The position numbers were made by a program, and so were the translations under genes. From Synechococcus sp. (lineage in GTDB: Bacteria > Cyanobacteriota > Cyanobacteriia > PCC-6307 > Cyanobiaceae): a DNA stretch of 64,000 bases. The notes under the pieces were generated by a model. That model was not told the origin of the DNA, made no database searches, and worked only from the letters and a program-made list of their open reading frames with translations. The stretch is from NCBI GenBank assembly GCA_047285535.1, contig JBJBDC010000001.1:768136-832135 (forward strand), given 5' to 3'. This document shows positions 9,731-54,164 of this stretch, piece by piece; position 1 is the first letter of the stretch; every line of letters starts with the position of its first letter.

Positions 9731-9777
9731 GCTCCAGGACGAAATCCACCAGACTGAAGGCTCTGAAATCTCAACAA

Positions 9778-10757: not shown

Positions 10758-10822
10758 ATAGTCCGTGCAACTGAGGGCATCTCGCCAGACGAACAACCAT
10801 GGCCTGGTGGCCGCTGCTGCCT
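10758..10822 (+). repeat. Displaced DUF4336 5'-end scar / att-like site
   Basis: ATA GTC CGT GCA ACT GAG GGC ATC TCG CCA GAC GAA CAA CCA TGG CC- TGG TGG CCG CTG CTG CCT; tggtggccgctgctgcc is identical to 33809-33825; 27/31 identical to 29118-29148. Confidence 0.8.
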
Positions 10823-13007: not shown

Positions 13008-13067
13008 GTGGCGGCACAGGGCATCCAATCGGTGGATCAGCACTGGCCCTGGCGGCCGCTGCTGCCA
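13008..13067 (+). repeat. Displaced DUF4336 5'-end scar / att-like site
   Basis: GTG GCG GCA CAG GGC ATC CAA TCG GTG GAT CAG CAC TGG CCC TGG CGG CCG CTG CTG CCA (MAAQGIQSVDQHWPWRPLLP). Confidence 0.85.
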
Positions 13068-14097
13068 GTCAGCAGTCTTTGATTGCAATGGTTTTAATGG
13101 ACATGTCTCTGAGCTATCCCTGTTCTTTGAGCAACTGGGCAGGATGGCGTGCAACTCCCAGTGGTTCAACCAAGCTTTGAATCCTGCTTCACAAATGATG
13201 GACCTAGACAACTAGCGCGTACCTCTCGAACTCTGGGACTTCTCCCCGATGACTCTTGGCGCGGTCATCACACCACCGCCGCAGCGCCATGGCGTCGTCC
13301 AAGGCGTCATCCAGGTCCTCAAAGTCCACCCCCCCATCACTTCGGTACGGTTGAGTCGAGCATGGATGGACCTGTGGATCCGGCCAAAGCCGCTGAGATG
13401 TGTCAGTTGTCGGAGCCTTGATCTGAGACAGCTGCGGCCATCCGCCGAATTGTCGGATGATCGAAGCGAATGAGGAGCACCTGCTGTGGCATCGACCAAC
13501 CGCACCTTGCTGAAGCGCCTGGCCGTGGATCTGGCTGAGCTTTGCAGTGATCCGGAGAATCTCGACTATGCCTTCGACCTGCTCAATGCCACCTATGGGA
13601 CTGAGGTGGCGCAGGCGGCACGCGACCGCCTCAAGAACGACCCGGACATCCGTCCGCTGGTGCAGGAGCGCTACTGGGGGAACTGGCCGGCACTGCCTGA
13701 GCTGGTGGCATTGCCGGCAGGATCGCTGGGCCATGTCTACGGCCTGTTCATCACATCGCAAGGACTGAGTGAACTGCCCGCTCCCGTGTTGCCCTCAGGG
13801 GTCGGAGGCGACGACGCCTACTTGCAGATGCGCATCCGCTACACCCACGATCTCTGGCATGTGATCGCCGGACTCCCCGTTAACCTCGCCGGAGAGGCGG
13901 CCGCCACCGGTCTCACCACCGAACAGCTGCGCTGGCCAGGAAGTGCACTCCTGATCGCTGCTGACCTGATCCATCGCGTCAGCACCACTGAAGCCGATGC
14001 CGAAGGAGACGTCGATGTGGGTGTGGCCATCGCCTACGGCCTCAACCTTGGGGCCCAGGCCCGCCCCCTGCTGGCCCAGCGCTGGGAGGAGGGCTGG
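13063..14097. repeat. ~1.03-kb near-identical direct repeat, copy 1 (copy 2 at 31461-32495)
   Basis: Offset 18398; I saw only one synonymous difference (ctc/cta aag). Confidence 0.95.
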
Positions 14098-14196
14098 CAG
14101 ACCCCTCTAAAAACCTGGCGGGAAGCGTTGGGGATCCGCACGCTTCTACGCCACAGCCCCTTCCCGTTGCTCACAGGTGAGATGCCGCGAAGCTGA
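13486..14196 (+). CDS. Coq4-family protein, copy A
   Basis: LPAGSLGHVY and HDLWHVIAGLPVNLAGE (HDxxH...E metal motif). Confidence 0.85.
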   Translation: MASTNRTLLKRLAVDLAELCSDPENLDYAFDLLNATYGTEVAQAARDRLKNDPDIRPLVQERYWGNWPALPELVALPAGSLGHVYGLFITSQGLSELPAPVLPSGVGGDDAYLQMRIRYTHDLWHVIAGLPVNLAGEAAATGLTTEQLRWPGSALLIAADLIHRVSTTEADAEGDVDVGVAIAYGLNLGAQARPLLAQRWEEGWQTPLKTWREALGIRTLLRHSPFPLLTGEMPRS

Positions 14197-17237: not shown

Positions 17238-17495
17238 ATGGAATTGAAGATGCTGGTGATGGTTGTGGTGGCTCATGTTGCCAGTGCCTTTTTCAGCAAA
17301 ACCATCGCTGGGCAGAAGGCCCGCAGCAGCAAGAACTGGTTCTGGGCTGGGTTGATCTTTGGTCCGCTGGGGTTGATCGCTGCGGTGGGGTTGGCCGACC
17401 GCCATCAGATCGTGTATCTGCGGCATCTGGCTGAAACCCAGGGCTATGAGCCGCGCCATCAGTGCGGCGGCAAAGCGAAGCAAGAGTTTGAGTAA
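17238..17495 (+). CDS. Small membrane protein
   Basis: IAGQKARS..WFWAGLIFGPLGLIA; paralogous 3' remnant at 29161-29286. Confidence 0.7.
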   Translation: MELKMLVMVVVAHVASAFFSKTIAGQKARSSKNWFWAGLIFGPLGLIAAVGLADRHQIVYLRHLAETQGYEPRHQCGGKAKQEFE

Positions 17496-17709: not shown

Positions 17710-18336
17710 CTAGGCCGATTCAGACACTCCTACGACTGCAGCAAAGGGGTCCCAATCAGCATCACAGTGCCAGTCGTATTCAGCGAAATTGGCGGCCTGC
17801 TCGGCGGCCTGGCGGCTGACCAGCTTGGCAATCACCGCCAGCGACATATCGATGCCAGCCGATACACCCGATGAGGTGAAGAACTTGCCATCTTCCACCC
17901 AGCGCGCTTGCAGTTGCCACTGCACGTTGGCGCTCTGAGAGGCCGCCCAGGCGAAGGCCAGCTTGTTGCTGGTGGCACGGACCCCATCGAGCACCCCCAC
18001 CTTGGCCAGCAGGGCGCTACCGGTGCAGACTGAGGCAACCAGTTCAGCCTGCTGCGAGCGCTCCTTCAACCAATCGAGCAGCACTGGATTATCGACTTCC
18101 CGTCTGGTGCCAATGCCGCCTGGAACCAGCAGCACGTCGATGGCAGGGGCGGTGGTGAATGAATCGTCGCTGACGCTTTTGGGGCCCTGGCGGCTGGCCA
18201 CCACGCCTCCGTTTTCGCAGATCAAGCGGATCTCGAAATGATCGGCCACCAAGCCGAACATCTCCAACGGTCCAAACACATCGAGCAGTTCAAAGCCCTC
18301 AAAGAGGACAACGCCAATGGTTCGTTTGCGCTTCAT
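17710..18336 (-). CDS. DJ-1/PfpI family protein (InhA-like), copy A
   Basis: GFELLDVFGP, VPGGIG, SVCTG, SSGVSAGID. Confidence 0.9.
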   Translation of the reverse strand: MKRKRTIGVVLFEGFELLDVFGPLEMFGLVADHFEIRLICENGGVVASRQGPKSVSDDSFTTAPAIDVLLVPGGIGTRREVDNPVLLDWLKERSQQAELVASVCTGSALLAKVGVLDGVRATSNKLAFAWAASQSANVQWQLQARWVEDGKFFTSSGVSAGIDMSLAVIAKLVSRQAAEQAANFAEYDWHCDADWDPFAAVVGVSESA

Positions 18337-24559: not shown

Positions 24560-24696
24560 GCGGCAACCGGCGTGGCCAGTGATGCTGTTTAGCGCCGGGG
24601 TGGGTGGTTTGGCCCTGGCCTGATCCATTCCTCTGCAGAATCAGTGCATTGATGGGGAGCTTGGTGGCTGGAGCTGGTGTGAATCCTGCTGATCAG
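24560..24696 (+). repeat. ~137-bp displaced copy of the DUF4336 leader and first 12 codons
   Basis: Matches 33661-33799; the start ATG is TTG at 24661. Confidence 0.95.
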
Positions 24697-25345
24697 GGCT
24701 TGCTTGGTGTTTTGCATTGGTCTCAGACAGCATTGCCAACAACCATTCGATCCGTTGGAGACGTTGATCGAGCTTCGTTTCAAGGCTGGTGAGCCGTTCT
24801 TCGAATTTCGTTTCACTGAGAGCCTTGCTCCGGCTGCAACTCGTGGTGGCTTTAACAGGCCAGGTACCGCTTTGATAGGTCTGAACAATCACCGCCCAGG
24901 TCGGTTTTTTAGGAGCGGGTCCGATTTGGCTTTCAATCCAAGCCTTTGCCTCCGCAACCTTGCCGAAGCGCTTTTCTGCGCTTGCTGCGCAGTCAGTCCG
25001 GACAAATCCTTTGGAAATCACTGGTGTAGCGAATGCCTTTGCATTCGATCTGGGGCTGGATCGCATTGGTGCTCAATGTCGTTATTGAACGATCGAGTTG
25101 ATCAGGATTGGCTTGCTGGAGATCCCCTTCCATTGCGCACTTTGTTGAACTTCAAGCCTTTTTTCTACAGAAGCCAACAGGGAATTTGCACTGCTTCTCA
25201 GCATGAACTCAGTGAACTTTGAGGAAAGAGTCTTGGCATCTTTCGTCCTATTCATCGACACTACAGGAGCCTGATTCAATCCGTTGGTATTGATTGCCAT
25301 AGCTAGTAGCTACACCGCTCGCGATCCGAGCACCACAACCTCCCA
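24697..25345 (-). pseudogene. Internally deleted copy of the coiled-coil gene pair (6020-7040) and its upstream region
   Basis: Matches ~6049-6331 joined to ~6885-7250; ~550-bp deletion. Confidence 0.9.
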
Positions 25346-25696: not shown

Positions 25697-27292
25697 ATGA
25701 ACAGCGCACTTGGCATCGTTGTGGCGTCGGTGGCTGCATTCACTGGTGGCATCCTCATCCACCGGTTACTTCAGCAGCAAAGACGCCAGAACAGCACTCA
25801 CACACCCACAAAAGGGCCGACTCAGCAGCAGGAAGCAGCCGCCAGGCCAGCAACCGGACTGGTGATGCCGTCGCAGCATGTGCCGCTTCCCGAAGCACCT
25901 GCCAGACCAGCAGCAGCAATGACTTCCTCGGCAGCGGTGCCGCCTGCGCCGGAGCGTGGCCCGCTGGTCGTTCGGCTGCACTACCGCAGGAGCGGAGGAG
26001 ACATCGGTGAATACAAGGGGACCATGCTGAGCCGCAGGCCCGATGACGCCGGGATGCGGCTCGTCAACCTGAGGCTGGACGGCGAGAGATTCGTGAAGCC
26101 ATTCCTGATGGAGCGCATGCTTCGCCTTGAACTGGTCGAGCACAACCGGATCATCGAAGGTGCCGAGTCCATCCAGAACGAACTGCTGCGGCGACTGGAG
26201 ATCGGTCGTCGACGCCGGAAAGCGGATCCCCGCCCGAAGACCACATCATCCTCGGCATCCACTGCATCTTCAGCTACTGCATCATCAGCTGCGGTTGCAC
26301 CTGCCCCTGAACAACAACTCAGTGAGCTGCTGCCTGAGGGCGCACGCGGCTTCGCGGTGTTTGACCTGGAAACAACCGCTCTCAGCATCCACAGCGCACG
26401 GATCGTGGAGATCGCCCTGGTGCTTGTCGATCCTGATGGTTCGGTGACGGATGAATGGGTCAGCCTGATCAATCCAGAGGAATCGATCGGTAACAGCAGC
26501 ATTCACGGAATCAGCGATGCCATGGTGCGTTCAGCCCCTGTTTTCGCAGCGCTGGCACAGACAATCGCCAACCATCTGCATGGCCGCGTGCCGGTTGCCC
26601 ACAACCTGAACAGCTACGACCTGCCGATCCTGAAACGGCATTTCGCAGAGGTGCCCGGTCTGACAATTGAGCTCGGTGACGGCATCGACACGATGCCTCA
26701 CCCTCGCCGCAAACTCAGCACCCTGTGCAGACAACACGGCATCGAGCTGAAGGATGACGATGCCCATACAGCGCTTGGCGACACCAGGGCACTAGCCGCT
26801 CTGCTGTGCAGCAAACCTGGTCATCTAAGGCCTGCAAGCGTTGCCGCATCAACCGCTGGCGCCTTCCCTCCCCTTGGAGACAGCGCAGCACTGACGCGCT
26901 CGGATTCGAACAGAGCACAGGATCAGCAGCCGCAGCCGGCACAGCCGAAAACCAGAACAGGTGAATGGGTCATCCATTCGCTGGATCTCAAGCCAGGTCT
27001 GGAATTCATGGCAACAGGGCCCAAATCAAAGGGTGTCGACACGGAAATCCGCCGGGGCGAGGCCCACGGAGAACAACTTGGTCTGCACTACAAAAAACGG
27101 AACAACATCCCTAAACGGACCCCGCCCGCTTTCCTGCTCAGCACAAGCCTCAGGCTTGCGACCTGCAAGATGCGCGAAGCCCGCGAGCAGGGTCTAGCGG
27201 TTGTGACGGTGGCTGATCTGATGCGTTGCGCATGCGGCGATTCAGTGCGTGCCCATCGCTGGTGCGCCGATGGAAGCCCAGGCGATGGCTGA
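25697..27292 (+). CDS. Membrane-anchored WYL-like + DEDDh 3'-5' exonuclease + BRCT-like protein
   Basis: N-terminal TM; Pro/Ala linker; LHYRRSGG...KPFLMERM; FDLETT, AHNLNSYD, AHTALGD; FMATG...KMREAREQGLAVV. Confidence 0.85.
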   Translation: MNSALGIVVASVAAFTGGILIHRLLQQQRRQNSTHTPTKGPTQQQEAAARPATGLVMPSQHVPLPEAPARPAAAMTSSAAVPPAPERGPLVVRLHYRRSGGDIGEYKGTMLSRRPDDAGMRLVNLRLDGERFVKPFLMERMLRLELVEHNRIIEGAESIQNELLRRLEIGRRRRKADPRPKTTSSSASTASSATASSAAVAPAPEQQLSELLPEGARGFAVFDLETTALSIHSARIVEIALVLVDPDGSVTDEWVSLINPEESIGNSSIHGISDAMVRSAPVFAALAQTIANHLHGRVPVAHNLNSYDLPILKRHFAEVPGLTIELGDGIDTMPHPRRKLSTLCRQHGIELKDDDAHTALGDTRALAALLCSKPGHLRPASVAASTAGAFPPLGDSAALTRSDSNRAQDQQPQPAQPKTRTGEWVIHSLDLKPGLEFMATGPKSKGVDTEIRRGEAHGEQLGLHYKKRNNIPKRTPPAFLLSTSLRLATCKMREAREQGLAVVTVADLMRCACGDSVRAHRWCADGSPGDG

Positions 27293-28329: not shown

Positions 28330-28986
28330 AAGAGGTTTGAGAGCGCTCCCAAAGGCCCAGGATGATGCGGTGTATTTCTGCGGGGTCGACCGGTTATCCC
28401 TGCACTGCTGCTGGTTCCTTGTAAGCGTTTTCTTGACCCGGATTCAGTCTTTTCCCATCCGTTGCGCTATCCACAAGAGGCATGCCGCAGAGATGGAATC
28501 GCGCCGGCTTCTGGCTTCTCCTGGCCAATGTTGGATCCATTTCATTAGGTTTTCACAGCTGGTGGCTCGACCGTTCTGATCGCTGAGCCATTGCACGCAG
28601 GATTTCACCCTTCGTGCAGCATGTTTCTCGGAATTTGCCGAGGCTTCGATTCGGTTCAGTCCTTTCCGCTGATAGACGCCCAATGAACTTCGTACTGGAC
28701 CGCCTGCGTTGCGCCTGATGTCTTTGTCGAAGTTCGCCAGTGCCTGGTCGACTGCTCTTGAGATCGCAACATCGGGATCTTCGGAGGTGGAGGTCAGCTT
28801 CAGCCACTTCTGATCGCCCGATCCGTGAGCTCGGGTGTTGAAGGAGAGGTCGATCAGGTCTTCCCCTGACGGCCTGGTTTTTCGTCGTAACGAGAGGCCG
28901 TATCGATCAGAGTGAATGGGACGGAGATACTTGGAGAGTCACTTCAGCCTTGCGTTGTTACGGCGTTGCCCAGTCGTCTCTGTCAT
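28330..28986 (-). pseudogene. Decayed tyrosine recombinase/integrase N-terminal part, catalytic domain missing
   Basis: ATG 28986, TGA at codon 16, then ~165 open codons (GLSLRRKTRPSGEDLIDLSF...LMKWIQHWPGEARSRRDSISAACLLW), then a frameshift to ...AYKEP..*PVDPAEIHRII; resembles arm-binding plus core-binding regions of cyanobacterial integrases. Confidence 0.55.
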
Positions 28987-29101
28987 CTAGGAACAACGCT
29001 GTACATCCGCCAATTTTTTCCCTGAATTGTCCCTAAAACCACTTGCACAAGGTTTTGCCCACATGCACAAAAAGAGTCCATGGACACAGCTGATTTGAGT
29101 G

Positions 29102-29161
29102 ATGGCAGGCAATCTGAGTGAAACTGAGGGCATCTCCCGAGACGATCAGGGCTGGCCCTGG
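29102..29161 (+). repeat. Displaced DUF4336 5'-end scar / att-like site next to the integrase
   Basis: ATG GCA GGC AAT CTG AGT GAA ACT GAG GGC ATC TCC CGA GAC GAT CAG GGC TGG CCC TGG (MAGNLSETEGISRDDQGWPW). Confidence 0.8.
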
Positions 29162-29286
29162 CTGATCGACATCAAATCGTCTACCTCAGTCACCTAGCGG
29201 AAAGCCAGGGCTATGTCCGGCGCCGAAGCTGCGGTGGCAAAGATGCCCAAGACAACTCACAGAAGCAAAGCGGAGACGATCACTGA
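29161..29286 (+). pseudogene. 3' remnant of a small membrane protein (paralog of 17238-17495)
   Basis: ADRHQIVYLSHLAESQGY..CGGK vs ADRHQIVYLRHLAETQGY..CGGK. Confidence 0.8.
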
Positions 29287-29298
29287 GGCATAGAGGGA

Positions 29299-29880
29299 TC
29301 AACCATCAACCAGACCGTGCAATTTGGCGAAAGTCGCAACCTGATCTGCCAGCTCGGGGCTGACCCATTGGGCAATCACCGCCAAGGACATGTCGATCCC
29401 TGCCGAGACTCCCGTCGAGCTGAAGAATTTTCCATCTTCCACCCAACGCGCTTGTTTCTCCCACTGCACCAAGGAGCTCTGGAACGTCACCCAATCGAAG
29501 GCCATCTTGTTGGTGGTGGCACGTACCCCATCCAGCACAGCGGCTTTGGCAAGTAGGGCACTGCCGGTGCAGACGGAGGTCACGAGAGTGGCGCGCTGCG
29601 ACTGATCCCTCAACCAATCCAACAGCAGCTGATTGCCAACCTCCTGCCGTGTGCCTGGTCCGCCCGGAACCAGCAGCAGCTCGAAGCCAAGAACATCACG
29701 GAAGGAACAATCCGTGATGTTCTTGGGCCCCTGGCGGCTGGCGATCACGCCGCCAGGCTCACAGACCAGGCGGATGTCGAAATGGTCTGCTGCCATTCCA
29801 TACATTTCCAGTGGACCAAGGACATCAAGAAGTTCAAAACCTTCAAAGCGAAGAACTCCGATGCTTCGTTTGTTGGACAT
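29299..29880 (-). CDS. DJ-1/PfpI family protein, copy B (C-terminally shortened)
   Basis: Same motifs as 17710-18336; lacks EYDWH..DPFA. Confidence 0.85.
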   Translation of the reverse strand: MSNKRSIGVLRFEGFELLDVLGPLEMYGMAADHFDIRLVCEPGGVIASRQGPKNITDCSFRDVLGFELLLVPGGPGTRQEVGNQLLLDWLRDQSQRATLVTSVCTGSALLAKAAVLDGVRATTNKMAFDWVTFQSSLVQWEKQARWVEDGKFFSSTGVSAGIDMSLAVIAQWVSPELADQVATFAKLHGLVDG

Positions 29881-29954
29881 TGGCTAGTCCTCACGAGTGG
29901 ATGACGCCTTACAGCTGGTGCAAGCGGCCGTTGCCAAGGCTGCTGGCCTGGAGA

Positions 29955-30665
29955 TCAGAGCCGAGTACCGCTGCGGTTAGCACTGGCGGGTTCGCTGATC
30001 GGCACTCCTGGCCTCCAATGCTGCACAGAGAACGTTTGATTTGGGGCCGGGATGCCGCTTGCTGGTGGCTTGATCTGACTGCGCCAGCCGCTGGTCCACT
30101 TGATCATCACGCTGCCATTGTCCCGGAGCGACCAGGAGCCATCAGCCACTTGATCGATGTTGTTGAAAGCCATTCCCGAGGAGGTGAGCACCGCGAGATA
30201 AGGGGGTTTCTCGGGCTGGCTTGGCTGCAGTTTGTACGCTCCCACCCAAGCCGAGATCGGACGAGTGAGTTGCACCGCCTTGCCGTGATTACTGGGGCCT
30301 CCATTCAGTGAGGCACCAGGTTTCCACGACCACTGGACCAGACCGGCCGGGCCGAGTTGAATCGTGTCGGTCCAACCGTCTCGATAGGTCGAGCGGATGC
30401 CGTTACCCCAGGCCTGCCAGCTGCCGGTCTCCAACAGCTGATTACGCGTCATGCGTTGCGGCTCTCCAAGATCGGGATGACGTTTGCCGATCACTGTGAG
30501 CGAAGAGCCATCGGCTCGCAGGATCAGATTGAACGGCACATTGTCATTGTCGGTAAGCACCCAGGTACCCAGCATGCGTTTGGCATCGGGCTGAGGAAAA
30601 CCAGCCCCGAGAAGTGCGCCACACAGCAAGAGTGCAGCAGGGGCTTTTACCCAGAAGAGGCCCAT
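29955..30665 (-). CDS. Hypothetical secreted protein
   Basis: Signal peptide; two GxW-type beta-rich repeats. Confidence 0.7.
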   Translation of the reverse strand: MGLFWVKAPAALLLCGALLGAGFPQPDAKRMLGTWVLTDNDNVPFNLILRADGSSLTVIGKRHPDLGEPQRMTRNQLLETGSWQAWGNGIRSTYRDGWTDTIQLGPAGLVQWSWKPGASLNGGPSNHGKAVQLTRPISAWVGAYKLQPSQPEKPPYLAVLTSSGMAFNNIDQVADGSWSLRDNGSVMIKWTSGWRSQIKPPASGIPAPNQTFSVQHWRPGVPISEPASANRSGTRL

Positions 30666-30888
30666 GTCAGTTCGGTTGATTCCCTTGGTTTAGCAGCAGT
30701 GCACACAAGCCACCGCAGGCTCAGGAAACACAGGCAAGTGGGTGGTTCTACTCAAGTGCTTCAAATGGTTATCAACAGCACGATCAGACTTGAACAGCGA
30801 AGAGCACATTGAGAGTGCTGGGGCATCAATCGGTGATCATCACCATGTTGACGCCGGCCTTGAAAACAGACACCGAAATGCTGCTGTT

Positions 30889-31320
30889 ATGGACTCGCTG
30901 ACTGCTTTTGCTGCCATTGGATTGACAGCTGTGGCTTGGGATGGCTCGCTCACTCCAGCGGGGGGACGGGCCTTCCGCCATGCGCTCGATTACCGCGAGC
31001 CCTACTGCAACATGCGTGAGCAATCCATGGTTGATCTCATCGATTGCCTCCTGACACGTCGCCGTGAAATCGGTAACAACGCGCTCATGCTTGAAGCGGC
31101 TCAGGCGCTGAACAGCAGCCAATCACTCACCGCTTACGCCATGGCATCAGAGTTGATGCGATCTGACGGACCTTACGAGCCCGAGGAACGCCAACATCTG
31201 GATCATCTGGCTCTGGTTCTCTCGATTGCCAAACCGGAATCCGATCGTATCGATTCGGTGTTTGATGTCTTGCACAATCAACTGAAGCTCTGGTCTGAGC
31301 TGCAAACACAACCAGCCTGA
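30889..31320 (+). CDS. TerB-family (tellurite resistance-like) protein
   Basis: AVAWDG...AYAMASELMRSDG.YEPEER..LDHLA..LSI. Confidence 0.8.
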   Translation: MDSLTAFAAIGLTAVAWDGSLTPAGGRAFRHALDYREPYCNMREQSMVDLIDCLLTRRREIGNNALMLEAAQALNSSQSLTAYAMASELMRSDGPYEPEERQHLDHLALVLSIAKPESDRIDSVFDVLHNQLKLWSELQTQPA

Positions 31321-31408
31321 AGATCCTGAATCTTCAGGACGATGACGTCAACGACAGCGCCTTGATTAAGGGTGCAAGAGGTGATATCGGCGGAACTGAA
31401 GATCAAGC

Positions 31409-31465
31409 ATGGGTGCAGATAGCGATCCAGCTGATCAACGCTGGGCCTGGTGACCTCTGATGCCA
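31409..31465 (+). repeat. Displaced DUF4336 5'-end scar / att-like site
   Basis: ATG GGT GCA GAT AGC GAT CCA GCT GAT CAA CGC TGG GCC TGG TGA CCT CTG ATG CCA (MGADSDPADQRWAW*PLMP). Confidence 0.85.
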
Positions 31466-32495
31466 GTCAGCAGTCTTTGATTGCAATGGTTTTAATGGAC
31501 ATGTCTCTGAGCTATCCCTGTTCTTTGAGCAACTGGGCAGGATGGCGTGCAACTCCCAGTGGTTCAACCAAGCTTTGAATCCTGCTTCACAAATGATGGA
31601 CCTAGACAACTAGCGCGTACCTCTCGAACTCTGGGACTTCTCCCCGATGACTCTTGGCGCGGTCATCACACCACCGCCGCAGCGCCATGGCGTCGTCCAA
31701 GGCGTCATCCAGGTCCTCAAAGTCCACCCCCCCATCACTTCGGTACGGTTGAGTCGAGCATGGATGGACCTGTGGATCCGGCCAAAGCCGCTGAGATGTG
31801 TCAGTTGTCGGAGCCTTGATCTGAGACAGCTGCGGCCATCCGCCGAATTGTCGGATGATCGAAGCGAATGAGGAGCACCTGCTGTGGCATCGACCAACCG
31901 CACCTTGCTGAAGCGCCTGGCCGTGGATCTGGCTGAGCTTTGCAGTGATCCGGAGAATCTCGACTATGCCTTCGACCTGCTCAATGCCACCTATGGGACT
32001 GAGGTGGCGCAGGCGGCACGCGACCGCCTAAAGAACGACCCGGACATCCGTCCGCTGGTGCAGGAGCGCTACTGGGGGAACTGGCCGGCACTGCCTGAGC
32101 TGGTGGCATTGCCGGCAGGATCGCTGGGCCATGTCTACGGCCTGTTCATCACATCGCAAGGACTGAGTGAACTGCCCGCTCCCGTGTTGCCCTCAGGGGT
32201 CGGAGGCGACGACGCCTACTTGCAGATGCGCATCCGCTACACCCACGATCTCTGGCATGTGATCGCCGGACTCCCCGTTAACCTCGCCGGAGAGGCGGCC
32301 GCCACCGGTCTCACCACCGAACAGCTGCGCTGGCCAGGAAGTGCACTCCTGATCGCTGCTGACCTGATCCATCGCGTCAGCACCACTGAAGCCGATGCCG
32401 AAGGAGACGTCGATGTGGGTGTGGCCATCGCCTACGGCCTCAACCTTGGGGCCCAGGCCCGCCCCCTGCTGGCCCAGCGCTGGGAGGAGGGCTGG
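31461..32495. repeat. ~1.03-kb near-identical direct repeat, copy 2
   Basis: See 13063-14097. Confidence 0.95.
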
Positions 32496-32594
32496 GAAAC
32501 CCCTCTCGATGGGTGGCGCAAGAGGCTCGGCATCTACTCGCTGCTGCAGACCACCCCGTTTCCGCGGCTGCACGGGGAGGCGGCAGACGGTTGA
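31884..32594 (+). CDS. Coq4-family protein, copy B
   Basis: Identical to copy A up to ...EEGW; last ~32 residues diverged. Confidence 0.85.
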   Translation: MASTNRTLLKRLAVDLAELCSDPENLDYAFDLLNATYGTEVAQAARDRLKNDPDIRPLVQERYWGNWPALPELVALPAGSLGHVYGLFITSQGLSELPAPVLPSGVGGDDAYLQMRIRYTHDLWHVIAGLPVNLAGEAAATGLTTEQLRWPGSALLIAADLIHRVSTTEADAEGDVDVGVAIAYGLNLGAQARPLLAQRWEEGWETPLDGWRKRLGIYSLLQTTPFPRLHGEAADG

Positions 32595-32623
32595 TGTTGT
32601 AGTGACCATTGCCGACTTGAAGA

Positions 32624-32656
32624 GATCAGTGATGGCCTTGGTTTCCGCTGCTGCTT
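32624..32656 (+). repeat. Displaced DUF4336 5'-end scar / att-like site
   Basis: GAT CAG TGA TGG CCT TGG TTT CCG CTG CTG CTT (DQ*WPWFPLLL). Confidence 0.8.
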
Positions 32657-32870
32657 CTAGCAAGCGACAAACTGATTATGGGGTTGAAAGCTGGTCACTA
32701 AGTTCCCGAGAGTTGTGTGTGCAAGTGGACGTGATCAAAGGCAACTCGGGACAATGTGAAGGCCATACTCAAAAACGAAGCAGTGAAAACCTATTCGCGA
32801 AAGATGTATAAACGAGCCTCTTGCGTGGTCTTGTGTATGACGACTGCTTGATCATGTTCGTAGTCTGTGA

Positions 32871-33251
32871 CTACATCCTGGGCAAGCAAAAATCAACAGT
32901 TAGTACGCCGTTCATGCCGCCTTCGATGAGTGGAATCATTACTGGGGATAAATCAAGATGAGGTTTTGACGTGTCATATGAAATGCGACAACTTTTGTTT
33001 TCAAAGACAATAAACAAACAGTGATTGTAACCCCTGGCCAAAAATGTCGCATCAGACGAAATACCGAAGGTATCTACAATTTCCTGCGGGAAGTTAAACG
33101 TTTCCAAGGGGCCGGCGTGGGCTAATTCAACCCCTGGGATTCTGGTTTTGAATGACTTAACCTGCTTGTCCACATCTGTAATTGCAATTGGACTCACGTC
33201 TTTCTTGATTTTCCAAAGGCCAATGTGAATAATTTTGGATGATGACATCAT
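32871..33251 (-). CDS. Dabb-family stress-responsive alpha/beta barrel protein
   Basis: IIHIGLWKIK...IPGV...GYNHCLFIVFE....Y...PH...VDF. Confidence 0.75.
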   Translation of the reverse strand: MMSSSKIIHIGLWKIKKDVSPIAITDVDKQVKSFKTRIPGVELAHAGPLETFNFPQEIVDTFGISSDATFLARGYNHCLFIVFENKSCRISYDTSKPHLDLSPVMIPLIEGGMNGVLTVDFCLPRM

Positions 33252-33763
33252 CGAATCATTTTTTCTGTTCTGCGTTGACATTCCTCTGGCTTCCCGTGGA
33301 TGATGCCTCTGGGACAAAGAGGCTGTTCTTGCAACCCTATGTGCTCTTTGAATGCCAGGGTGCCGTTTTAAAGACCATTAGTACCTGACCTCAGTTAGGT
33401 CTTCTGCCTTGAGTGGCTGCTGCTGACAGTCTGGATTCTCTAATTGCGGGGGTTGAGTGAAGCGAACCCTAAATCCCCCCCTTTTTCTTCAGCTTGGCTT
33501 GATTCTGTGAAAGTGAACCTTTTGAAGCGACTGACTTGTTTGTGACGCAATTGCTTTCTTGGGTGGAGTAAGCGTTGGCGATCGTTTATGGAAGGTGTGC
33601 CCCAGCGTTGAGCCTTCACTTCAGCCTGGCGTTGGTGGCGTTTGTTCTGTTGGTGAGTTAGCGGCAACCGGCGTGGCGTGTGGTGCTGTTTTTTGCGCCG
33701 GAGTGGGTGGTTTGACCCTGGCCTGATCCATTCCTCTGCAGAATCACTGCATTGACGGGGAGC

Positions 33764-34957
33764 ATGGTGGCTGGAGCTGGTGTGAATCCTGCTGATCAGC
33801 GTTGGGGTTGGTGGCCGCTGCTGCCGCTCTATCCCTATGGAAGGCGTGCCACCCACTTTGAAGAGCTCATCCCGGGCCAGGTATGGAGCTTTGAACAGCT
33901 CCAGGGCGTCTATTACGTGGCTGTGCCGATTCGGCTCACCGTGGTGAAGGTGCCCGGCGGCTTGATGCTGGTCAACCCACTGCCACCAACACAGGAATTA
34001 TGTGCCGGCTTAGCGGACCTTGAAGCTCAGCACGGATCGGTCTGCACGATTGTGTTGCCGACAGCGTCAGGTCTGGAACATAAGTTTCCGCTGGGGCCAC
34101 TGGCTCGTGCTTTCCCTGAAGCCGAGATCTGGGTCTGCCCTGGCCAGTGGAGTTTCCCCGTGCAGCTGCCCCTGAACTGGCTCGGAGTACCGGCAGCACG
34201 CACCAAAGTTTTGCTCACGGATGGGGTGCCCCATCCCGAGATGTGCCAATGGATCTCCCTTGGCCCTCTTGATCTCGGCGTGGGTCGTTTCCAGGAAATC
34301 AGCTGCCTGCATCGACCCAGTGGCGCCTTGCTGATCACCGATGCCCTGGTTGGCATTCACGCCCAACCCCCAGCCATTTTTGATCGCGATCCCACGCCGT
34401 TGTTGTTTCACGCTCGCAACCGTGGCGATCAACCCCTGATGGATTCAACCGAGGCACGGCGGCGAGGATGGGCCCGTCTGGTGCTGTTCGCCTCCTATCT
34501 GCGGCCCTACAAATTGCGTGTACCAGGCCTCGCCGAGTTGTTGCGCCATGCATTCCGGCCGGGATTACGAACAGGGAAAGCCCACTTCGGGCTTTATCCA
34601 TTCGATTGGCAAGACGGCTGGCACGATGATGCCATGAACCTGATGGGTGAAGAAGAAGCCAAATTACAAGTGGCTCCTGTTCTGGAACGACTGGTATTGC
34701 CGAGAGCACAACGGGCCCTCATCGCCTGGCTGGAACAACTGGAATCATGTTCTGATCTTGCCTGGCTGATCCCTGCCCACTACAGCGCACCTCTGCCATT
34801 CACGGCATTGCAGGCATCCGCTTTGCAAACGGACTTGCGACACAAGGCCTGGGCAACAAACGAAGGCAACTGGACCTTTCTTGCCAATATTGATCAACGT
34901 CTTTTAGAACTTGGATTTGTACCAGACGATCCTCTTAAAAAGAAATATTCAAATTGA
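33764..34957 (+). CDS. DUF4336 domain protein (metallo-beta-lactamase-like fold)
   Basis: WWPLLPLYPYGRR, VPIRLTVVK, TASGLEHK, IPAHY. Confidence 0.85.
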   Translation: MVAGAGVNPADQRWGWWPLLPLYPYGRRATHFEELIPGQVWSFEQLQGVYYVAVPIRLTVVKVPGGLMLVNPLPPTQELCAGLADLEAQHGSVCTIVLPTASGLEHKFPLGPLARAFPEAEIWVCPGQWSFPVQLPLNWLGVPAARTKVLLTDGVPHPEMCQWISLGPLDLGVGRFQEISCLHRPSGALLITDALVGIHAQPPAIFDRDPTPLLFHARNRGDQPLMDSTEARRRGWARLVLFASYLRPYKLRVPGLAELLRHAFRPGLRTGKAHFGLYPFDWQDGWHDDAMNLMGEEEAKLQVAPVLERLVLPRAQRALIAWLEQLESCSDLAWLIPAHYSAPLPFTALQASALQTDLRHKAWATNEGNWTFLANIDQRLLELGFVPDDPLKKKYSN

Positions 34958-39456: not shown

Positions 39457-41010
39457 ATGCGCGTGCTGTTTGCCGCCGCCGAATGCGCCCCCATGGTGAA
39501 AGTCGGTGGGATGGGTGATGTGGTTGGATCCCTCCCCCCCGCACTGAAAGCCCTGGGCCACGACGTGCGGTTGATCATGCCTGGCTACGGGAAGCTCTGG
39601 TCGCGATTGGAGATTCCCACAGAGCCCATGTGGCGGGGCCAGACGATGGGAACCGATTTTGCGGTGTTCGAAACCCGTCACCCCACCAATGGCATCACCA
39701 TCTATCTGGTGGGTCATCCCGTGTTTGATCCTGAACGGATCTATGGCGGTGAAGACGAGGATTGGCGCTTCACGTTTTTTGCCAGTGCCGCCGCAGAATT
39801 CTCCTGGAATGTCTGGAAACCGAATGTGCTGCATTGCCACGACTGGCACACGGGAATGATGCCGGTGTGGATGCATCAGGACCCAGAAATCAGCACCGTG
39901 TTCACGATCCACAACCTCAAATACCAAGGCCCATGGCGTTGGAAATTGGATCGCATGACCTGGTGCCCCTGGTACATGCAGGGAGATCACACGATGGCGG
40001 CTGCCTTGCTCTATGCCGATCGAGTGAATGCGGTCTCGCCCACCTACGCCAGTGAGATCCGCACCTCTGAATACGGAGAAAAGCTAGAAGGATTGCTTAA
40101 TTACATCTCTGGAAAATTGCGTGGGATCCTGAATGGGATTGATCTGGAGGCCTGGAATCCCGCCACCGATCGTGCGTTGCCCGCCACCTTCAGTGCGGAT
40201 GATTTCTCTGGTCGCGCCCGCAACAAGGAGGTCCTGCAGGAACGCATGGGCCTCGAAGTCAGGTCTGATGCCTATCTGCTGGGCATGGTGAGCCGTCTGG
40301 TGGATCAAAAAGGAGTTGATCTGTTGCTTCAAGTTGCAGATCGTCTGCTGGCGTACACCGATACCCAGATCGTTGTGCTTGGAACAGGGGATCGCGGCTT
40401 GGAGTCTGGTCTCTGGCAGATCGCTTCACGCTATCCGGGACGTGTCTCCGTCTTTCTGACCTACGACGATGACCTGTCAAGGCTGATTTATGCCGGCAGT
40501 GATGCCTTCTTGATGCCCAGTCGATTTGAGCCCTGTGGCATCAGCCAGTTGCTGGCCATGCGCTATGGATGCGTGCCCGTGGTGAGGAAGGTGGGTGGAC
40601 TTGTGGATACGGTTCCACCGCATGATCCTGCTCATCAGACTGGAACCGGTTTCTGCTTCGATCGGTTCGATCCTGTGGATTTCTACACAGCTCTGGTGCG
40701 CTCCTGGGAAGCGTTCCGCCATCAAGACAGTTGGCGTGAACTCCAGAAGCGAGGCATGCAGCAGGACTACAGCTGGGCTCGTTCAGCTCTGGAATATGAC
40801 CGGATGTACCGGGAGGTGTGTGGCATCAAAGAACCAGGCCCTGATGCAGCTGCCGTCGAGCAATTTTCACAGGGCCAGGAGGCAGATCCCTCACTGCGTT
40901 CAGGACAACTGGAAACTCCAATGAACTTGCCGGACAACACCATGGATCTGCCTAAGGGACAAGGATCGCGCAACCCCCTAGCCAGACTGTTTGGCGGCCA
41001 GCGGCTCTGA
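39457..41010 (+). CDS. glgA: Glycogen synthase
   Basis: [22 protein letters not shown]. Confidence 0.97.
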
Positions 41011-41028
41011 TGCTGACAACAATCACGC

Positions 41029-41856
41029 ATGCAGGATTCCTCCACAGGGAAGCAATCTGACTCTGAACAGGAAAGCTTCCTACCGTCTCCGTACAACAGC
41101 CCATGGAAAGCACTCAGCCAAGACCTGAGGGCTGTCAGTGCTGATCTTCGTCTTCGGACTCAAGAAATCTGGCGTCGTAATTATGAGGGCAATCTTTCTG
41201 TTCCAGCGTTTTGGCCCAGGACTTTTGCACCCCTGTTTTGGCCTGTCCTGCTGATATTGGCCACTGCCTTGTTGATCGTGGGCGGGCTTCAACTGTGCAC
41301 TGCACTGTCCTACAGCAAGGCACCCTCTCCACCAGAGGTCGAAAGGGTGCAAACCACTGCATTACCCAAAGCATTACCCAAAGCAAAGCCCCTACCAAGC
41401 ACAGGCGACATCGACTCCATCGTCAAGACTGAGGCTGCCATCACTTCCCCCGTCAAAAACGAAGCAGACGATCTGGACGTCTCTGTGAAATCATCGGCCC
41501 CGATAGAGTCAGTTCTCGAGAAAACTTCGTTGAATCCAGATCCCAAACCAATGCGGTTTGATCCACTGTTGAGGTTTCTTGCTGATGATAGAAACGCAGA
41601 AAGTACTGATGGGTCAGCGTTGATTGTTTCAGCCCAACCTGAACCAGAACGCAATGCAGTGACTTTGACAATCAATGCTGCTCAATGGATCCAACTCTCT
41701 AAAGACGAACGCCATCAACTTGCCGATGGATGGTGGGAGAGGCTCGAAGAGCAAGGTTACGGAGATCTACGCCTGATCAATGCGGAACAAGACCTGTTGG
41801 CTCGACCGGCAAGAATCGGCGGAGGCATGATTGTTCTGAATCCAAACAGCATGTAA
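41029..41856 (+). CDS. Conserved hypothetical membrane protein
   Basis: TM; C-terminal LLARPARIGGGMI. Confidence 0.75.
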   Translation: MQDSSTGKQSDSEQESFLPSPYNSPWKALSQDLRAVSADLRLRTQEIWRRNYEGNLSVPAFWPRTFAPLFWPVLLILATALLIVGGLQLCTALSYSKAPSPPEVERVQTTALPKALPKAKPLPSTGDIDSIVKTEAAITSPVKNEADDLDVSVKSSAPIESVLEKTSLNPDPKPMRFDPLLRFLADDRNAESTDGSALIVSAQPEPERNAVTLTINAAQWIQLSKDERHQLADGWWERLEEQGYGDLRLINAEQDLLARPARIGGGMIVLNPNSM

Positions 41857-42855
41857 AGCAGCAAAGAATCAAAAAACGGGGTCAATCAACACCAATACGT
41901 TCAGCTGTACCTGATGAAAAGCATGGATAGAAGATCAAACAACGGTAAGCAAGCAACACAACCCATGACGTCAAAAGGAGCGCGAAACACTCAACACAAA
42001 ATCCTGCGAATGGTTCCTGTGAAACAAATCATATCCACCAGCAAATAGACATGAGGCCGCAAACGATCAAAATGCAAAACATATTGAGTCTCTCAAGATA
42101 GAACAATCAGTCATCGAGCAAGACAGACTTGGCGGTGAATTTCAGCTGATAAAGCCGTTGATCCGCAGCGGCGAAAATCTACGAATACCTCAAGATGCTC
42201 CGAAAAAACAACGAAGGCATGAGAAGCAAGACTTCAATCTGATTGAGGCAAAGGCCTATCAACCTACGGATGAAAGACAATCAACGAACACTCTCGACGC
42301 CGTGACCTCAAACAAACAGACCATAAATTGCAAGATCAAAAAGAACCTGACCTGAGAGGATTGCACATCTGCAGGTCATGGCGAATTGATCGAGTGCGTG
42401 AAGGTTCTATAGAATACGTATGACCGGATCAGGGCATTCTTCAAACTCAAACCAATACGGCTATCACGACAACAAAACAAGCAGATTTTGAATTCCTGCA
42501 TAACCCTGCAGATCGTGCTGCATTCCAAAGATGAAAAATTTCAGGAAGAGACTGGAAACAGATAACGTCTAGAAGTTTCGGTCTTTGCATAAAAGATGTC
42601 AAAGCCCCTCAACCCCTCGCGGGCTTCTAAATCGCGAGAGGTTGATCGATTGTGGGACCGTTGACCCCGTCCAAGAGTCACCCGACTATCTTCCCGGCAA
42701 GCCTCGTCACCGTTCGTGAGAAAAGCTCTCAATAGCTGTAATGAATGAACGTGCCTCATGAAAAAAGGCAATCCGTCTCTTCTTCATTGGCTTGATCTCA
42801 AGCCGGAAGGGCATCTGAAAGCTGAAGCCGATGGCCATGGTTTGGCTCAAGCCAT

Positions 42856-42926
42856 AAAAAAAGAAGGCGAGGAAGCCTTCTTTGGGGGTGTGAGGAGCCA
42901 AACCTTGTGAGGAGTTGGCTGTCTCT
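42856..42926 (-). ncRNA. Yfr1/Yfr10-like sRNA
   Basis: Minus strand AGCCAACTCCTCACAAGGTTTGGCTCCTCACACCCCC followed by terminator AAGAAGGC-TTCCTC-GCCTTCTTTTTTT; carries the Yfr1-type CUCCUCACAC motif; 5' end approximate. Confidence 0.7.
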
Positions 42927-42945
42927 ATCTTCATGACGCTGTTCC

Positions 42946-42965
42946 GATCAGTCAAGTAACTGATC
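42946..42965. promoter_or_regulatory. Inverted repeat between the divergent sRNAs, candidate operator
   Basis: GATCAGT-caagta-ACTGATC. Confidence 0.5.
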
Positions 42966-43005
42966 CGCTGAGACTTGCCAAGAGCCATTCATGAGCCATG
43001 ATTAA

Positions 43006-43095
43006 GGGGTGAGGAGGGCTTCTTCTCGGAGTGGAAACAAGGCAACACGCCCAAAGAGAAGCCGAGAAACCCTGCCTTTGGCGGGGTTTTCTTTT
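43006..43095 (+). ncRNA. yfr2: Yfr2-family sRNA
   Basis: 5' GGGGTGAGGAG; stem GGCTTCT/AGAAGCC with loop GGAAACAAGGCAAC; terminator AAACCCTGCC-TTT-GGCGGGGTTTTCTTTT; -10-like CATGAT just upstream. Confidence 0.85.
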
Positions 43096-43376
43096 GGTTA
43101 CGCCTAAAAAGGCAAATCCTCAAGAGGCTCCCGCGCATTCACCTCAAAACCAATTCGACGCTGCAGCGATGAGCAATAGGCAAAGACATCACTAAGGCAT
43201 TGACGCTCGAAGTGAACAGACGAGGTCCGGATAGAATGACGGCATGACAAGCGGCACAGGTACGACGACAGCTCCAGACGGCCACTCTCAGAAGCTAGAT
43301 ATCCACCTTGCATCATCGGTCACGTCAATGAAAGGAAGAAGTTTGCTGTTCCTCGGCGATCAGAAGAGGGGCAATA

Positions 43377-44747
43377 ATGCTTGATCTGGCTAATCTTGTT
43401 TCTATCTGGGGCCCACCCCAGCGAGGGGATGGAACCCAGCCAAACCTCCAACAACCCTTGGGGCCTGTCTGCACGGATAGCCGCTTGTTGACTCCAGGAG
43501 CCTTTTTCCTGCCCTTACGAGGTGAGCATTTTGATGGCCACTCTTTCCTTGAATCTGCTGTTCAGCAAGGCATCCAGGCTGCAGTTGTGGCCAAAGACAG
43601 CAAAGCACCTGTACCGCACACATTGGTGCATTGGGTTGTAGACGATACCCTCGACGCTTACCAACAGATTGCCCGTTTAGTTCGTCGCAATCTGAACTGC
43701 CATGTTGTGGCTGTCACCGGATCAGCAGGTAAGACGACAACGAGAGAACTGATTCGTGCCGCACTGGCACCGCTTGGAGCCATTCAAGCCAGCATCGGTA
43801 ACAACAACAATGACATTGGCGTACCACTCACATTGCTCGGTGTAGAGGAGCATCACGCCGCAGTGATCGTGGAAATGGGAATGCGAGGACCAGGTGAAAT
43901 TAAACGTTTATCGCTTTGTGCCGAACCACAGATTGCTGTAATTACGAATATCGGCACAGCTCATATCGGCCGTTTGGGGAGTCGCGAGGCGATTGCAGCT
44001 GCCAAATGTGAGATCACTGCTGGGCTCTCAGCTGATGGCCTTGTGGTCATACCAGCTGGGGATCCTCTTTTAGAAGCAGCTTTGGCTCGATCATGGAGCG
44101 GTGCCATTCGGCGTGTAGCGCTATCAGACGATCCAAATCAAACCGGTGTAGACATTGATGATGTTGGATCTTATGACCCCGATTCTGGACAGCTCAACCA
44201 AGCAGATCGTTCATTTTGTTGTCCGCTTGAAGGTCGACACAATGCACGCAATTTCATGCTGGCACTTGCAGTGGCAGAAAGCCTGGGAGTCACACCCGAG
44301 AAGCTTGAACATCTCGAGGTAGAAGTACCAGGAGGACGAAATCGCAAGCTGCAAATCGGCAGATTGTCGATTCTTGATGAGACGTATAACGCCTCCCCAG
44401 AAGCTGTGATTGCAGCCTTGGATTTACTCGCCTCTCAGCCAGGGAGACGTTTTGCTGTACTCGGCACCATGCTGGAGTTAGGTCAAGACAGTGTTCAGCT
44501 GCATAAAGCTGTCGTTGACCATGCCACAGGTCTGGACATTGATGGGCTCGTAGTAGTCGCGACTGGAGACGAAGCGAAAATAATGATGGAAGCTGGCTCA
44601 ACACTCGCCAGGTTTAGGCTTGTGGACAAGCCAGAACTAGCCGCTGAACCGCTGCGGGAATGGCTCAAACCTGACGACACTGTCCTTTTGAAGGCAAGTC
44701 GGGGAATTGAACTGGAACGTTTAATCCCATTTCTACCGCGGTTGTAA
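43377..44747 (+). CDS. murF: UDP-MurNAc-tripeptide--D-Ala-D-Ala ligase
   Basis: TGSAGKTTT, DETYNASP, LGTMLELG, LLKASRG. Confidence 0.96.
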   Translation: MLDLANLVSIWGPPQRGDGTQPNLQQPLGPVCTDSRLLTPGAFFLPLRGEHFDGHSFLESAVQQGIQAAVVAKDSKAPVPHTLVHWVVDDTLDAYQQIARLVRRNLNCHVVAVTGSAGKTTTRELIRAALAPLGAIQASIGNNNNDIGVPLTLLGVEEHHAAVIVEMGMRGPGEIKRLSLCAEPQIAVITNIGTAHIGRLGSREAIAAAKCEITAGLSADGLVVIPAGDPLLEAALARSWSGAIRRVALSDDPNQTGVDIDDVGSYDPDSGQLNQADRSFCCPLEGRHNARNFMLALAVAESLGVTPEKLEHLEVEVPGGRNRKLQIGRLSILDETYNASPEAVIAALDLLASQPGRRFAVLGTMLELGQDSVQLHKAVVDHATGLDIDGLVVVATGDEAKIMMEAGSTLARFRLVDKPELAAEPLREWLKPDDTVLLKASRGIELERLIPFLPRL

Positions 44748-44748
44748 A

Positions 44749-44943
44749 TCAAGCCGCAGTCTTTACAACAACATGATCTTCACAGCGGATGAGATCAATG
44801 GCGTGGGGGTGATCGTGGATGTAGCGAATGTTTTCCATGGCTAAAACCCTTGCTTCATAAGCATCAGCTGCATAGAAGCACTCTTCCAAGCGATGACTAG
44901 TCGCATCGCGATAACTGACGGTATAGCGCTTTAAATCCGGCAT
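44749..44943 (-). CDS. Conserved small cyanobacterial hypothetical protein
   Basis: YTVSYRD...EECFYAADAYEARVLAME..YIHDHPHAID. Confidence 0.75.
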   Translation of the reverse strand: MPDLKRYTVSYRDATSHRLEECFYAADAYEARVLAMENIRYIHDHPHAIDLIRCEDHVVVKTAA

Positions 44944-45085
44944 GGAATGAGAGAGCTGTAGCTCAAAGTTCACGCATGAAAGACCTAAAGCCAAGACCAA
45001 TGTGTGAAAAAAGTGTGTTAATTCAAAACTTCAACACATCACACTGAATTTCAGCTGGAAGATTTCTTGCTTGAGATGAATTGAA

Positions 45086-51457: not shown

Positions 51458-51462
51458 GACAT

Positions 51463-52056: not shown

Positions 52057-52070
52057 GGAAAGTCTTAATC

Positions 52071-54135: not shown

Positions 54136-54164
54136 ACACTTAATCGCCACTTGATTGAATCGAA

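Follow-up and report, generated by a model that had tools for sequence, protein, structure and literature searches.

A decayed integrase beside DUF4336 points to an unnamed tyrosine recombinase family and an island hotspot within a protein-coding gene of marine Synechococcus

Introduction

Genomic islands are the main difference between the genomes of marine Synechococcus, and how these islands are filled is only partly understood. Here we describe a 64,000-nt stretch of Synechococcus DNA, referred to throughout as the window, in which the decayed gene of an integrase lies beside a truncated copy of the 5′ end of a DUF4336 gene, one of several such copies along the same strand. An initial annotation, made from the letters of the window alone, had read this region as the end of an integrative element whose integrase targets the 5′ end of DUF4336. 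We followed up this reading in the genome to which the window belongs (G000), in the 45 other genomes of a 46-genome genus set, in metagenome loci and in protein collections, and compared the locus with described systems of site-specific recombination.

In phage lambda, the integrase gene lies by the attachment site and repeated words stand on both sides of the core, a layout shared by the ~260-nt site described here. The lambda record places four stretches bound by its integrase (Int) around the core, and the roles of the lambda arm sites are well known. Unlike lambda, the family at our locus has no detectable sequence similarity to Int and has replaced the classic histidines, its target lies inside a protein-coding gene, and no excisionase was identified here. 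In streptococci, the accretion of integrative and conjugative elements (ICEs) and cis-mobilizable elements (CIMEs) produces tandem modules flanked by attachment (att) sites, some of which lack an integrase and could be moved by that of a related element. Our arrays likewise are tandem and contain integrase-less modules; in contrast to the streptococcal elements, no conjugation genes were seen here.

Insertion at the 5′ end of a conserved protein-coding gene has been reported for the dusA-specific integrases, whose islands carry variable cargo (Farrugia et al. 2015, PMC4482086). As far as the portion of that paper used here describes them, dusA islands resemble the present elements in their dedicated integrase family, 5′-end site and variable cargo, a likeness of description only. 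They differ in target, which here is DUF4336, in host, which here is marine Synechococcus, and in the long same-strand arrays, mostly integrase-less, that we find.

Tycheposons are small integrative elements, with cargo, found in marine picocyanobacteria of the genera Prochlorococcus and Synechococcus (Hackl et al., bioRxiv 10.1101/2020.12.28.424599; Grebert et al. 2022, PMC8995045). The sections of these two papers drawn on here report successive insertions at one site, by which older elements are driven further into the island, partial att copies and fragmented integrases, with the tyrosine recombinase distal in Synechococcus, and describe attachment in tRNA/tmRNA genes only (bioRxiv 10.1101/2020.12.28.424599; PMC8995045). 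Compared with tycheposons as described in those sections, the present elements are alike in host group, small size, and successive insertions with partial att copies and integrase fragments. They are unlike them in that the site lies in a protein-coding gene, the window holds no tRNA, Pfam does not recognise the integrase, and no viral relative was found. A literature search on DUF4336, covering titles and the opening of abstracts but not supplements, returned nothing on cyanobacterial islands, and a search on this site by title, again without supplements, returned no paper.

Results

A decayed integrase gene and its intact relatives

The pseudogene occupies 28331-28986 on the minus strand. 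It retains residues 1-222 of a tyrosine recombinase family whose members are 407 aa long, and its catalytic domain (residues 223-407) has been deleted. A six-frame search of relatives traced an 85% identical match to an intact 407-aa open reading frame (ORF) in another genome of the genus, G014. When the intact G014 protein was compared with the window by tblastn, its residues 1-182 aligned with 28986-28450 at 82% identity and its residues 174-222 with 28477-28331, in another frame, at 71% identity. No match was found past residue 222, so the catalytic half of the window integrase is absent. The minus-strand start codon is the ATG at 28984-28986. DNA alignment to the intact G014 gene shows a premature TGA at codon 16 (28939-28941, minus strand) where G014 has CGA, an in-frame loss of 9 nt at ~28607/28608, the loss of 1 nt at ~28473/28474 (minus strand), which shifts the frame, and an end of homology near 28335. 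Following the TGA, 164 codons stay open up to a stop at 28444-28446 on the minus strand.

The window therefore keeps the N-terminal 55% of the integrase gene, with at least four lesions, and its copy is incomplete as an enzyme, given the stop at codon 16, the frameshift and the absence of anything beyond residue 222. The decayed minus-strand frame of the initial annotation, with its ATG, TGA, open run and frameshift, is correct in all its coordinates, and the loss of catalytic motifs that it reported agrees with the tblastn result. Neither Pfam nor NCBIfam assigned the open frame of the window to a family. No second integrase copy exists in the same genome, where profiles of the close family and of a broadened set found only two fragments.

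To judge what kind of protein the family represents, we used the intact G014 homolog for the fold and an alignment of family members for the catalytic residues. The family is small, with 38 proteins in a collection of 5.8 billion sequences, the few named ones being listed as 'hypothetical protein', and 39 cluster representatives at E ≤0.001 among 1.84 billion; one intact homolog, from Synechococcus sp. KORDI-52, is recorded at NCBI as KR52_11040. The intact protein matched no Pfam family at E values up to 1, without reaching the gathering score of PF00589, and had no phmmer hits among PDB sequences. A sirtuin matched in the PDB by the close-family profile at E 1 was dismissed as chance, and alignment of the family profile to the single lambda Int sequence by hhalign gave an uninformative probability of 0.14.

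An AlphaFold model of the intact protein, built from 19 sequences, has a mean pLDDT of 83, and its best Foldseek matches are lambda Int, XerH, XerA, Cre, IntI4 and the Tn1549 integrase. VIA-align superposes 248 residues on lambda Int 75-356 (1z19_B) with Z 11.3 and rmsd 4.0, and its rows 1-44 are exclusively tyrosine recombinases or protelomerases. By both programs, the G014 homolog has the two-domain fold, core-binding plus catalytic, of these enzymes. The predicted catalytic set R241, K272, R357 and Y390, together with R164, G239 and L356, is invariant in 25 sequences with identities down to 22%. A broadened profile of 25 sequences matches XerD (1a0p) at E 3.3e-5 across both domains, pairing TGaRg with TGLRV, sKrgr with GKGNK, RsLRHa with HVLRHA and ektYsd with TQIYTH; these XerD motifs we take to be the catalytic Arg, Lys, His-x-x-Arg and Tyr, respectively. 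Of 21 distant relatives, eight match PF00589 below its threshold; the highest score among them is 26.2 bits, where the cut-off is 27.1. Judged by the predicted fold and the conserved residues, the family is a divergent tyrosine recombinase, and its intact members would be catalytically competent. The recombinase identity proposed for the window frame is upheld in that the read-through protein belongs to a family with the tyrosine recombinase fold and the R-K-R-Y set.

Intact copies lie beside DUF4336

Full-length intact integrase genes are present in 4 of the 46 genomes (G014, G044, G050 and G061), and G000 holds fragments only. In all four intact genomic copies, DUF4336 lies divergently ~110-120 nt upstream of the integrase start; for G014, Pfam verifies the neighbouring gene as DUF4336. 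The same divergent arrangement is found in 6/6 judgeable metagenome loci, namely those among the 11 fetched in which 224 nt or more precede the integrase start; two of the metagenome loci, L075 and L076, are apparently one sequence assembled twice. The predicted position beside DUF4336 is thus occupied in 10/10 judgeable intact copies (4 genomes and 6 metagenome contigs). The alternative of homologs at tRNA genes without DUF4336 did not arise: DUF4336 stands beside every judgeable copy, and the window contains no tRNA or tmRNA gene detected by ARAGORN. DUF4336 is present in 33/33 high-quality genomes of the genus as a single-copy gene, and the intact target gene of the window lies at 33752-34957 on the plus strand (Pfam PF14234, E 3.7e-113).

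Weak partial matches to the integrase were found at other places in two further genomes, G024 and G043. Distant relatives of 363 and 395 aa, 22-28% identical, lie in these genomes (L008, G024:C1:1469202-1472666; L009, G043:C1:1079191-1082607) far from DUF4336; the G024 one is followed by a second short integrase-like ORF that matches PF00589 at E 4.3e-5.

A gene placed divergently to DUF4336, with repeats between the two, could also encode a DNA-binding regulator of DUF4336 for which the repeats serve as operators, and the lack of Pfam and NCBIfam hits and the replacement of two classic histidines would fit a protein that is not a recombinase. We consider this very improbable. The core-binding and catalytic domains fold as in lambda Int, with R, K, R and Y invariant, and the integrase is present in 4 of the 45 other genomes while DUF4336 is present in every high-quality one. 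Furthermore, as described below, the integrase gene sits within an insertion relative to another genome, G016, and the repeats recur kilobases off, after each displaced core.

Phased repeats flank a core within the DUF4336 coding sequence

Between the start of the pseudogene and the core copy lies the integrase-side arm (P arm; 28987-29143, plus strand), which holds two kinds of repeat, termed A and B, and a replacement start codon, and which aligns in 5/5 loci. The A repeats of the window are TTTCCCTGAA (29017-29026) and TGTCCCTAAA (29028-29037), containing the words TCCCTGA (29019-29025) and TCCCTAA (29030-29036) at a phasing of 11 nt. The B repeats, TGCACAA at 29044-29050 and 29064-29070, extend to TTGCACAA (29043-29050) and ATGCACAA (29063-29070) and are phased by 20 nt. 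The replacement ATG at 29102-29104, found where it had been predicted, is followed by 14 codons of the DUF4336 N-terminus (MAGNLSETEGISRD).

Across all five loci, the 157-nt arm from integrase start to core keeps both A words (TCCCTRA) and both B words (T/A-TGCACAA) in register, as well as the ATG and ~14 codons (M-A-G-D/N-L-S-x-T-E-G-I-S-x-x) that run in frame into the core. As they are conserved across loci, the window repeats are more than chance. A search of 4000-35000 against Rfam gave no family at its gathering score, so nothing points to a known RNA in the conserved arm.

The core next to the pseudogene is truncated. The initial annotation placed it correctly at 29144, where it begins, on the plus strand; it extends only to 29161 (GATCAGGGCTGGCCCTGG), the first 18 nt, and lacks both the 14-nt block TGGCCGCTGCTGCC and the far-side arm. 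From 29159 onwards, the sequence is paralogous to 17392-17475.

The missing half of the site can be seen at internal cores of the arrays described below. Beyond these cores stands a conserved stretch of ~92 nt whose consensus includes GTCCCTGAGTTGTCCCTGG, then TTTTGTGCAAC, then GTG-G-GCAAC; it presents the same A pair and the reverse complement of the B pair at unchanged spacings. Both far-side motifs occur at fixed offsets after 40/49 internal cores from 20 arrays, compared with 12/5000 random positions. Automated sorting gave 38/47, to which two cores (G008 3258 and G017 8481) were added by eye; cores with >7 mismatches from the consensus, such as the gene-proximal ones of G016, G048 and G053, are left out of the arm and flank counts. 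Because the repeats are conserved and stand on both sides of the core, they are real and are placed like the arm-type sites of lambda. The phased arm-type repeats of the earlier description are therefore exact in their coordinates, conserved in 5/5 arms and recurrent beyond core copies. From their sequence and placement, the A and B repeats are likely accessory (arm-type) binding sites, to which the integrase would bind.

Same-strand arrays of cores in the window and across the genus

The core spans the DUF4336 codons D-Q-x-W-P-W-W-P-L-L-P, which are repeated along the plus strand of the window. In the live DUF4336 gene, it lies at 33794-33825 (codons DQRWGWWPLLP), preceded at 33661-33793 by a left flank of a conserved class, N. 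Seven copies of core or flank share this strand, at 10789, 13035, 24691, 29144, 31433, 32624 and 33794, and three integrase-less modules (29162-33793) separate the dead integrase from the DUF4336 gene.

Among the other plus-strand copies, 10765-10820 is a second 5′ end of the integrase type (ATEGISPDEQPWP) without an integrase, its core (10789) bearing a 1-nt deletion; it follows directly after a 2-hydroxyacid dehydrogenase gene (9727-10734). The initial annotation had matched 10765-10795 with 29118-29148, and the 27/31 identity is exact; a match of at least 24/31 occurred in none of 10 block-shuffled windows. A repeat search joined the 10765 and 29118 ends at 80% over 40 nt (family D13), and 10765-10804 is an integrase-less 5′ end of the same type. 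At 13035-13160, a core (13035-13066) with a far-side arm whose A/B words are degenerate opens a Coq4-family module that is duplicated at 31433. The copy at 24560-24700 is an N-class 5′ flank, 92% identical to 33661-33799, that stops ~10 nt into the core (24691). A core and far-side arm make up 31433-31558, the 1074 nt from 31433 being 99% identical to 13035-14108. Finally, 32624-32750 holds a degenerate core with 6 mismatches to the consensus and a degenerate far-side arm.

Such copies are widespread in the genus. The core pattern occurs in 39 of the 46 genomes (1-12 hits each), with two or more copies in 27, of which only 4 retain an intact integrase, and a reversed-pattern control gave no hit in any of the 46. 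The highest number, 12, is found on one strand within 67 kb of G016 (G016:C1:1517717-1584861; L052-L055), an array with no integrase of this family. Nearly all core copies lie within tens of kb of DUF4336 and on its strand. At 66 sites in 20 arrays, core positions 19-32 (TGGCCGCTGCTGCC, 14 nt, codons W-P-L-L-P) are at least 89% conserved, and positions 1-18 covary with the left flank. One array of G024 departs from the common orientation (G024:C1:1308848-1328269; L061, L062): its cores at 1308848 (plus) and 1311829 (minus) are opposed and have identical far-side arms, and a third core, at 1320204, is also inverted. This arrangement looks like an inversion between cores within the array.

An occupied and an empty site

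A 13.3-kb module, which ends at a core, is common to genomes G016 and G050 and 96% identical between them. In G016, this module is followed by the DUF4336 gene; in G050, the same module is followed by a 6-kb element with an intact integrase and then by the gene, so that the pair provides one occupied-versus-empty comparison. The left junction in G050 carries the left half of the G016 core (GACCAGTACTGGGGTTTC), the right junction carries the element version (GACCAACGCTGGCCTTGG), and TGGCCGCTGCTGCC is present in both. The DUF4336 genes of the two genomes are only ~71% identical, which, set against 96% for the module, indicates that the module moved between species. In a third genome, G048, both ends of this module are present at 96-98% identity; internally there is a difference of 11 kb, and the left neighbour is another one.

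The limits of module identity are also informative. In 6/6 module pairs with at least 93% identity over 300 nt past the core, the window pair 13035/31433 included, the last mismatch falls between -18 and +28 relative to the core and never beyond. Within the window, 13035-14108 and 31433-32506 are 99% identical over 1074 nt, yet their 32-nt cores differ at 7 positions.

The large internal duplications of the window (13035-14108/31433-32506 and 6036-7256/24684-25351) might suggest that the cores match by chance, or were left behind when the 5′ end of DUF4336 was duplicated locally, without any mobile element. The data already contradict this explanation, to which we give next to no weight: the reversed pattern never occurs where the real one gives 1-12 hits in 39 genomes, the cargo differs between core copies, and one module is shared at 96-98% by three species with DUF4336 at ~71%, its identity stopping at the core.

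A proposed route to the array

We regard 28331-29161 as probably the decayed right end of an integrative element whose integrase targets the 5′ end of DUF4336 and would have built the array. Recombination by the integrase would join a site on the element to the 5′ end of this single-copy gene, with the exchange falling in or beside the 14-nt block TGGCCGCTGCTGCC. The arm sites would comprise, on the integrase side, an A pair spaced by 11 nt and a B pair (TTGCACAA) spaced by 20 nt, and on the far side, ~40-90 nt past the core, the same words with the B pair in reverse complement. The element would bring along an ATG and ~14 codons of replacement sequence, and probably also a promoter; DUF4336 would thereby stay whole, and the displaced old 5′ end would remain at the element's far end. 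Restoration of the 5′ end in this manner accords with an arm that gives an ATG and ~14 codons in frame with the core, and the G050/G016 comparison supports insertion. Successive insertions at one site would push older modules outward and leave an array of cores on one strand. As the integrase of the window is dead and has no second copy, its array would now be fixed unless another enzyme acts.

Several observations weigh against this account, the first of them concerning the protein. Searches of Pfam, NCBIfam and PDB sequences, with the protein or the close-family profile, leave the family unnamed. Both classic histidine positions are substituted, with R354 and S/T380-381 standing opposite the XerD histidines. 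Residues 1-100, modelled at pLDDT 75 as a helix, three strands and a helix, find their best match alone in unrelated proteins (Z 5.5); the arm-binding domain of the HPI integrase comes only at rank 18 (Z 4.6), and the arm domain of a P4-like integrase scores Z 4.5 in VIA-align. Others concern the element: no relative of the integrase was found in the viral contigs searched, a free circular form (arm-core-arm without DUF4336) is absent from the 11 metagenome loci, and the joint 29161/29162 by the pseudogene is a deletion scar rather than a clean recombination joint.

The remaining objections concern the array. An intact integrase is found in only 4 of the 45 other genomes, as against two or more cores in 27 of 46, and tblastn at E 0.001 detected a remnant of this integrase in none of 16 among the 20 arrays examined. 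The majority of internal left flanks represent two further conserved classes without A/B words, N, which ends ...GGTGTGAATCCTGCT, and R, which ends ...GCAGCATCCAATCTGAG, each of which supplies a start codon. Several N-class flanks within one array are not explicable by the stacking of integrase-type elements alone; these modules would therefore either have the N or R flank as a site of their own and move in trans, or be exchanged by homologous recombination across the conserved ~260-nt repeat. The claim that the decayed protein is the recombinase of the array is thus borne out only in part: the targeting of DUF4336 is supported, and the extension to the array as a whole does not follow simply, given that most modules lack an integrase and most arrays lack any trace of it.

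The same observations on the array speak for an explanation in which the integrase moved its own element only and the array was built by homologous recombination, through the ~260-nt repeats and DNA uptake, or by another recombinase. The genome G000 does contain 8 PF00589 matches elsewhere, 4 of them above the cut-off, none of which lies within the window. We nevertheless think this explanation rather unlikely. The far-side arms of the integrase-less modules carry the same A/B words at the same spacing as the integrase arm (40/49), and in each of the six pairs the identity between modules sets in at the core or slightly to its left, never to its right.

Cargo and neighbouring features

The three integrase-bearing elements that we delimited measure 2.9 kb (G014), 6 kb (G050) and ~29 kb (G044). 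The cargo of the G044 element (G044:C16, ~551200-580600; L018, L019) is defence-like and replication-like, comprising a protein with DUF3854 and an AAA domain, a Z1 domain, a DUF4420 PD-(D/E)XK protein, Vsr, DUF6339, and an SF1 helicase with an RNase_H-like domain. The modules of the window carry a 2-hydroxyacid dehydrogenase, a thiamine pyrophosphate (TPP) enzyme, two Coq4-family proteins, a P450, two DJ-1/PfpI proteins, a pyridoxal phosphate (PLP) decarboxylase, SelO, an Nramp-type transporter, two RNase_T-domain proteins and a Dabb-domain protein. A 353-aa minus-strand ORF at 9640-10701, considered from its position as a possible second integrase, was set aside; it has no similarity to the family and is antisense to the dehydrogenase gene at 9727-10734.

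A short ORF (99-145 aa) that has the motif WxRFAHTINGYE...FFEARRDRHSGGISTNE and matches no Pfam family adjoins the G014 integrase (L002 2711-3010, minus strand) and is also found in the window at 9293-9730 (plus strand), by the integrase-less 10765 end. The Coq4 duplication stops 88 nt short of the stop codon of the Coq4-like ORF. The second duplication, 6036-7256/24684-25351, is 86-94% identical and lies by RNase_T-domain exonuclease-like genes (4835-5635 and 25697-27292); its right-hand copy begins exactly at the end of the truncated N-class flank and core (24691). The DJ-1/PfpI genes (17713-18336 and 29302-29880) are paralogs with 73% DNA identity in separate modules, and the module at 29212-31554 is 89% identical to a module of G044. 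To the right of the conserved menD-menB-glgA block, G+C falls to 0.43-0.51 at ~41000-57000, compared with ~0.55-0.62 elsewhere, which suggests a second, unrelated island.

Discussion

The mode of action proposed here is known from lambda, dusA islands and tycheposons; the integrase family and its target are new. The wider result, which reaches beyond the coordinates from which we started, is an unnamed family together with a genus-wide hotspot made up mostly of integrase-less modules with intact sites.

How far the integrase-less modules depend on integrase-bearing ones bears on what the arrays are. Rather than the remains of decayed integrase elements, they may be stacks of cassettes, integrase-less from the outset and 1.4-13 kb in size, that a rare integrase-bearing module inserts and excises in trans. 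We hold this to be a real possibility, if somewhat short of probable. Each cassette would then carry a complete ~260-nt site, consisting of a flank with its own promoter and DUF4336 start codon, a core and an A/B arm. The likeness to integrons lies in a recombinase divergent from the insertion point and an array, in one orientation, of small, mostly integrase-less modules of 1.4-5 kb with their own sites. Unlike integrons, as far as the layout of the sites tells, the site here is a long one of double-strand type (flank, core and arm repeats) rather than a folded attC; the integrase sits in a mobile module and is absent from most arrays, and with each module a host gene has its 5′ end built anew. 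In fold, the integron integrase IntI4 (2a3v; Z 9.7) is no closer than other recombinases. If the arrays are indeed stacks of such cassettes, they would form an integron-like platform for gene capture that uses double-stranded, lambda-type sites and, with each capture, gives a host gene a rewritten 5′ end.

Under the preferred reading, in which the integrase targets DUF4336 and built the array, a family so far listed as 'hypothetical protein' gains a name and a likely mechanism. The concrete core and arm sites could serve as a native integration system in strains that are hard to engineer. For marine Synechococcus, the site represents a second kind of island hotspot, lying within a protein-coding gene and occupied in 27 of 46 genomes, beside the tycheposons, which the sources drawn on here link to tRNA genes. 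Through it, modules that are 96-98% identical are found across species whose flanking core gene is only ~71% identical.

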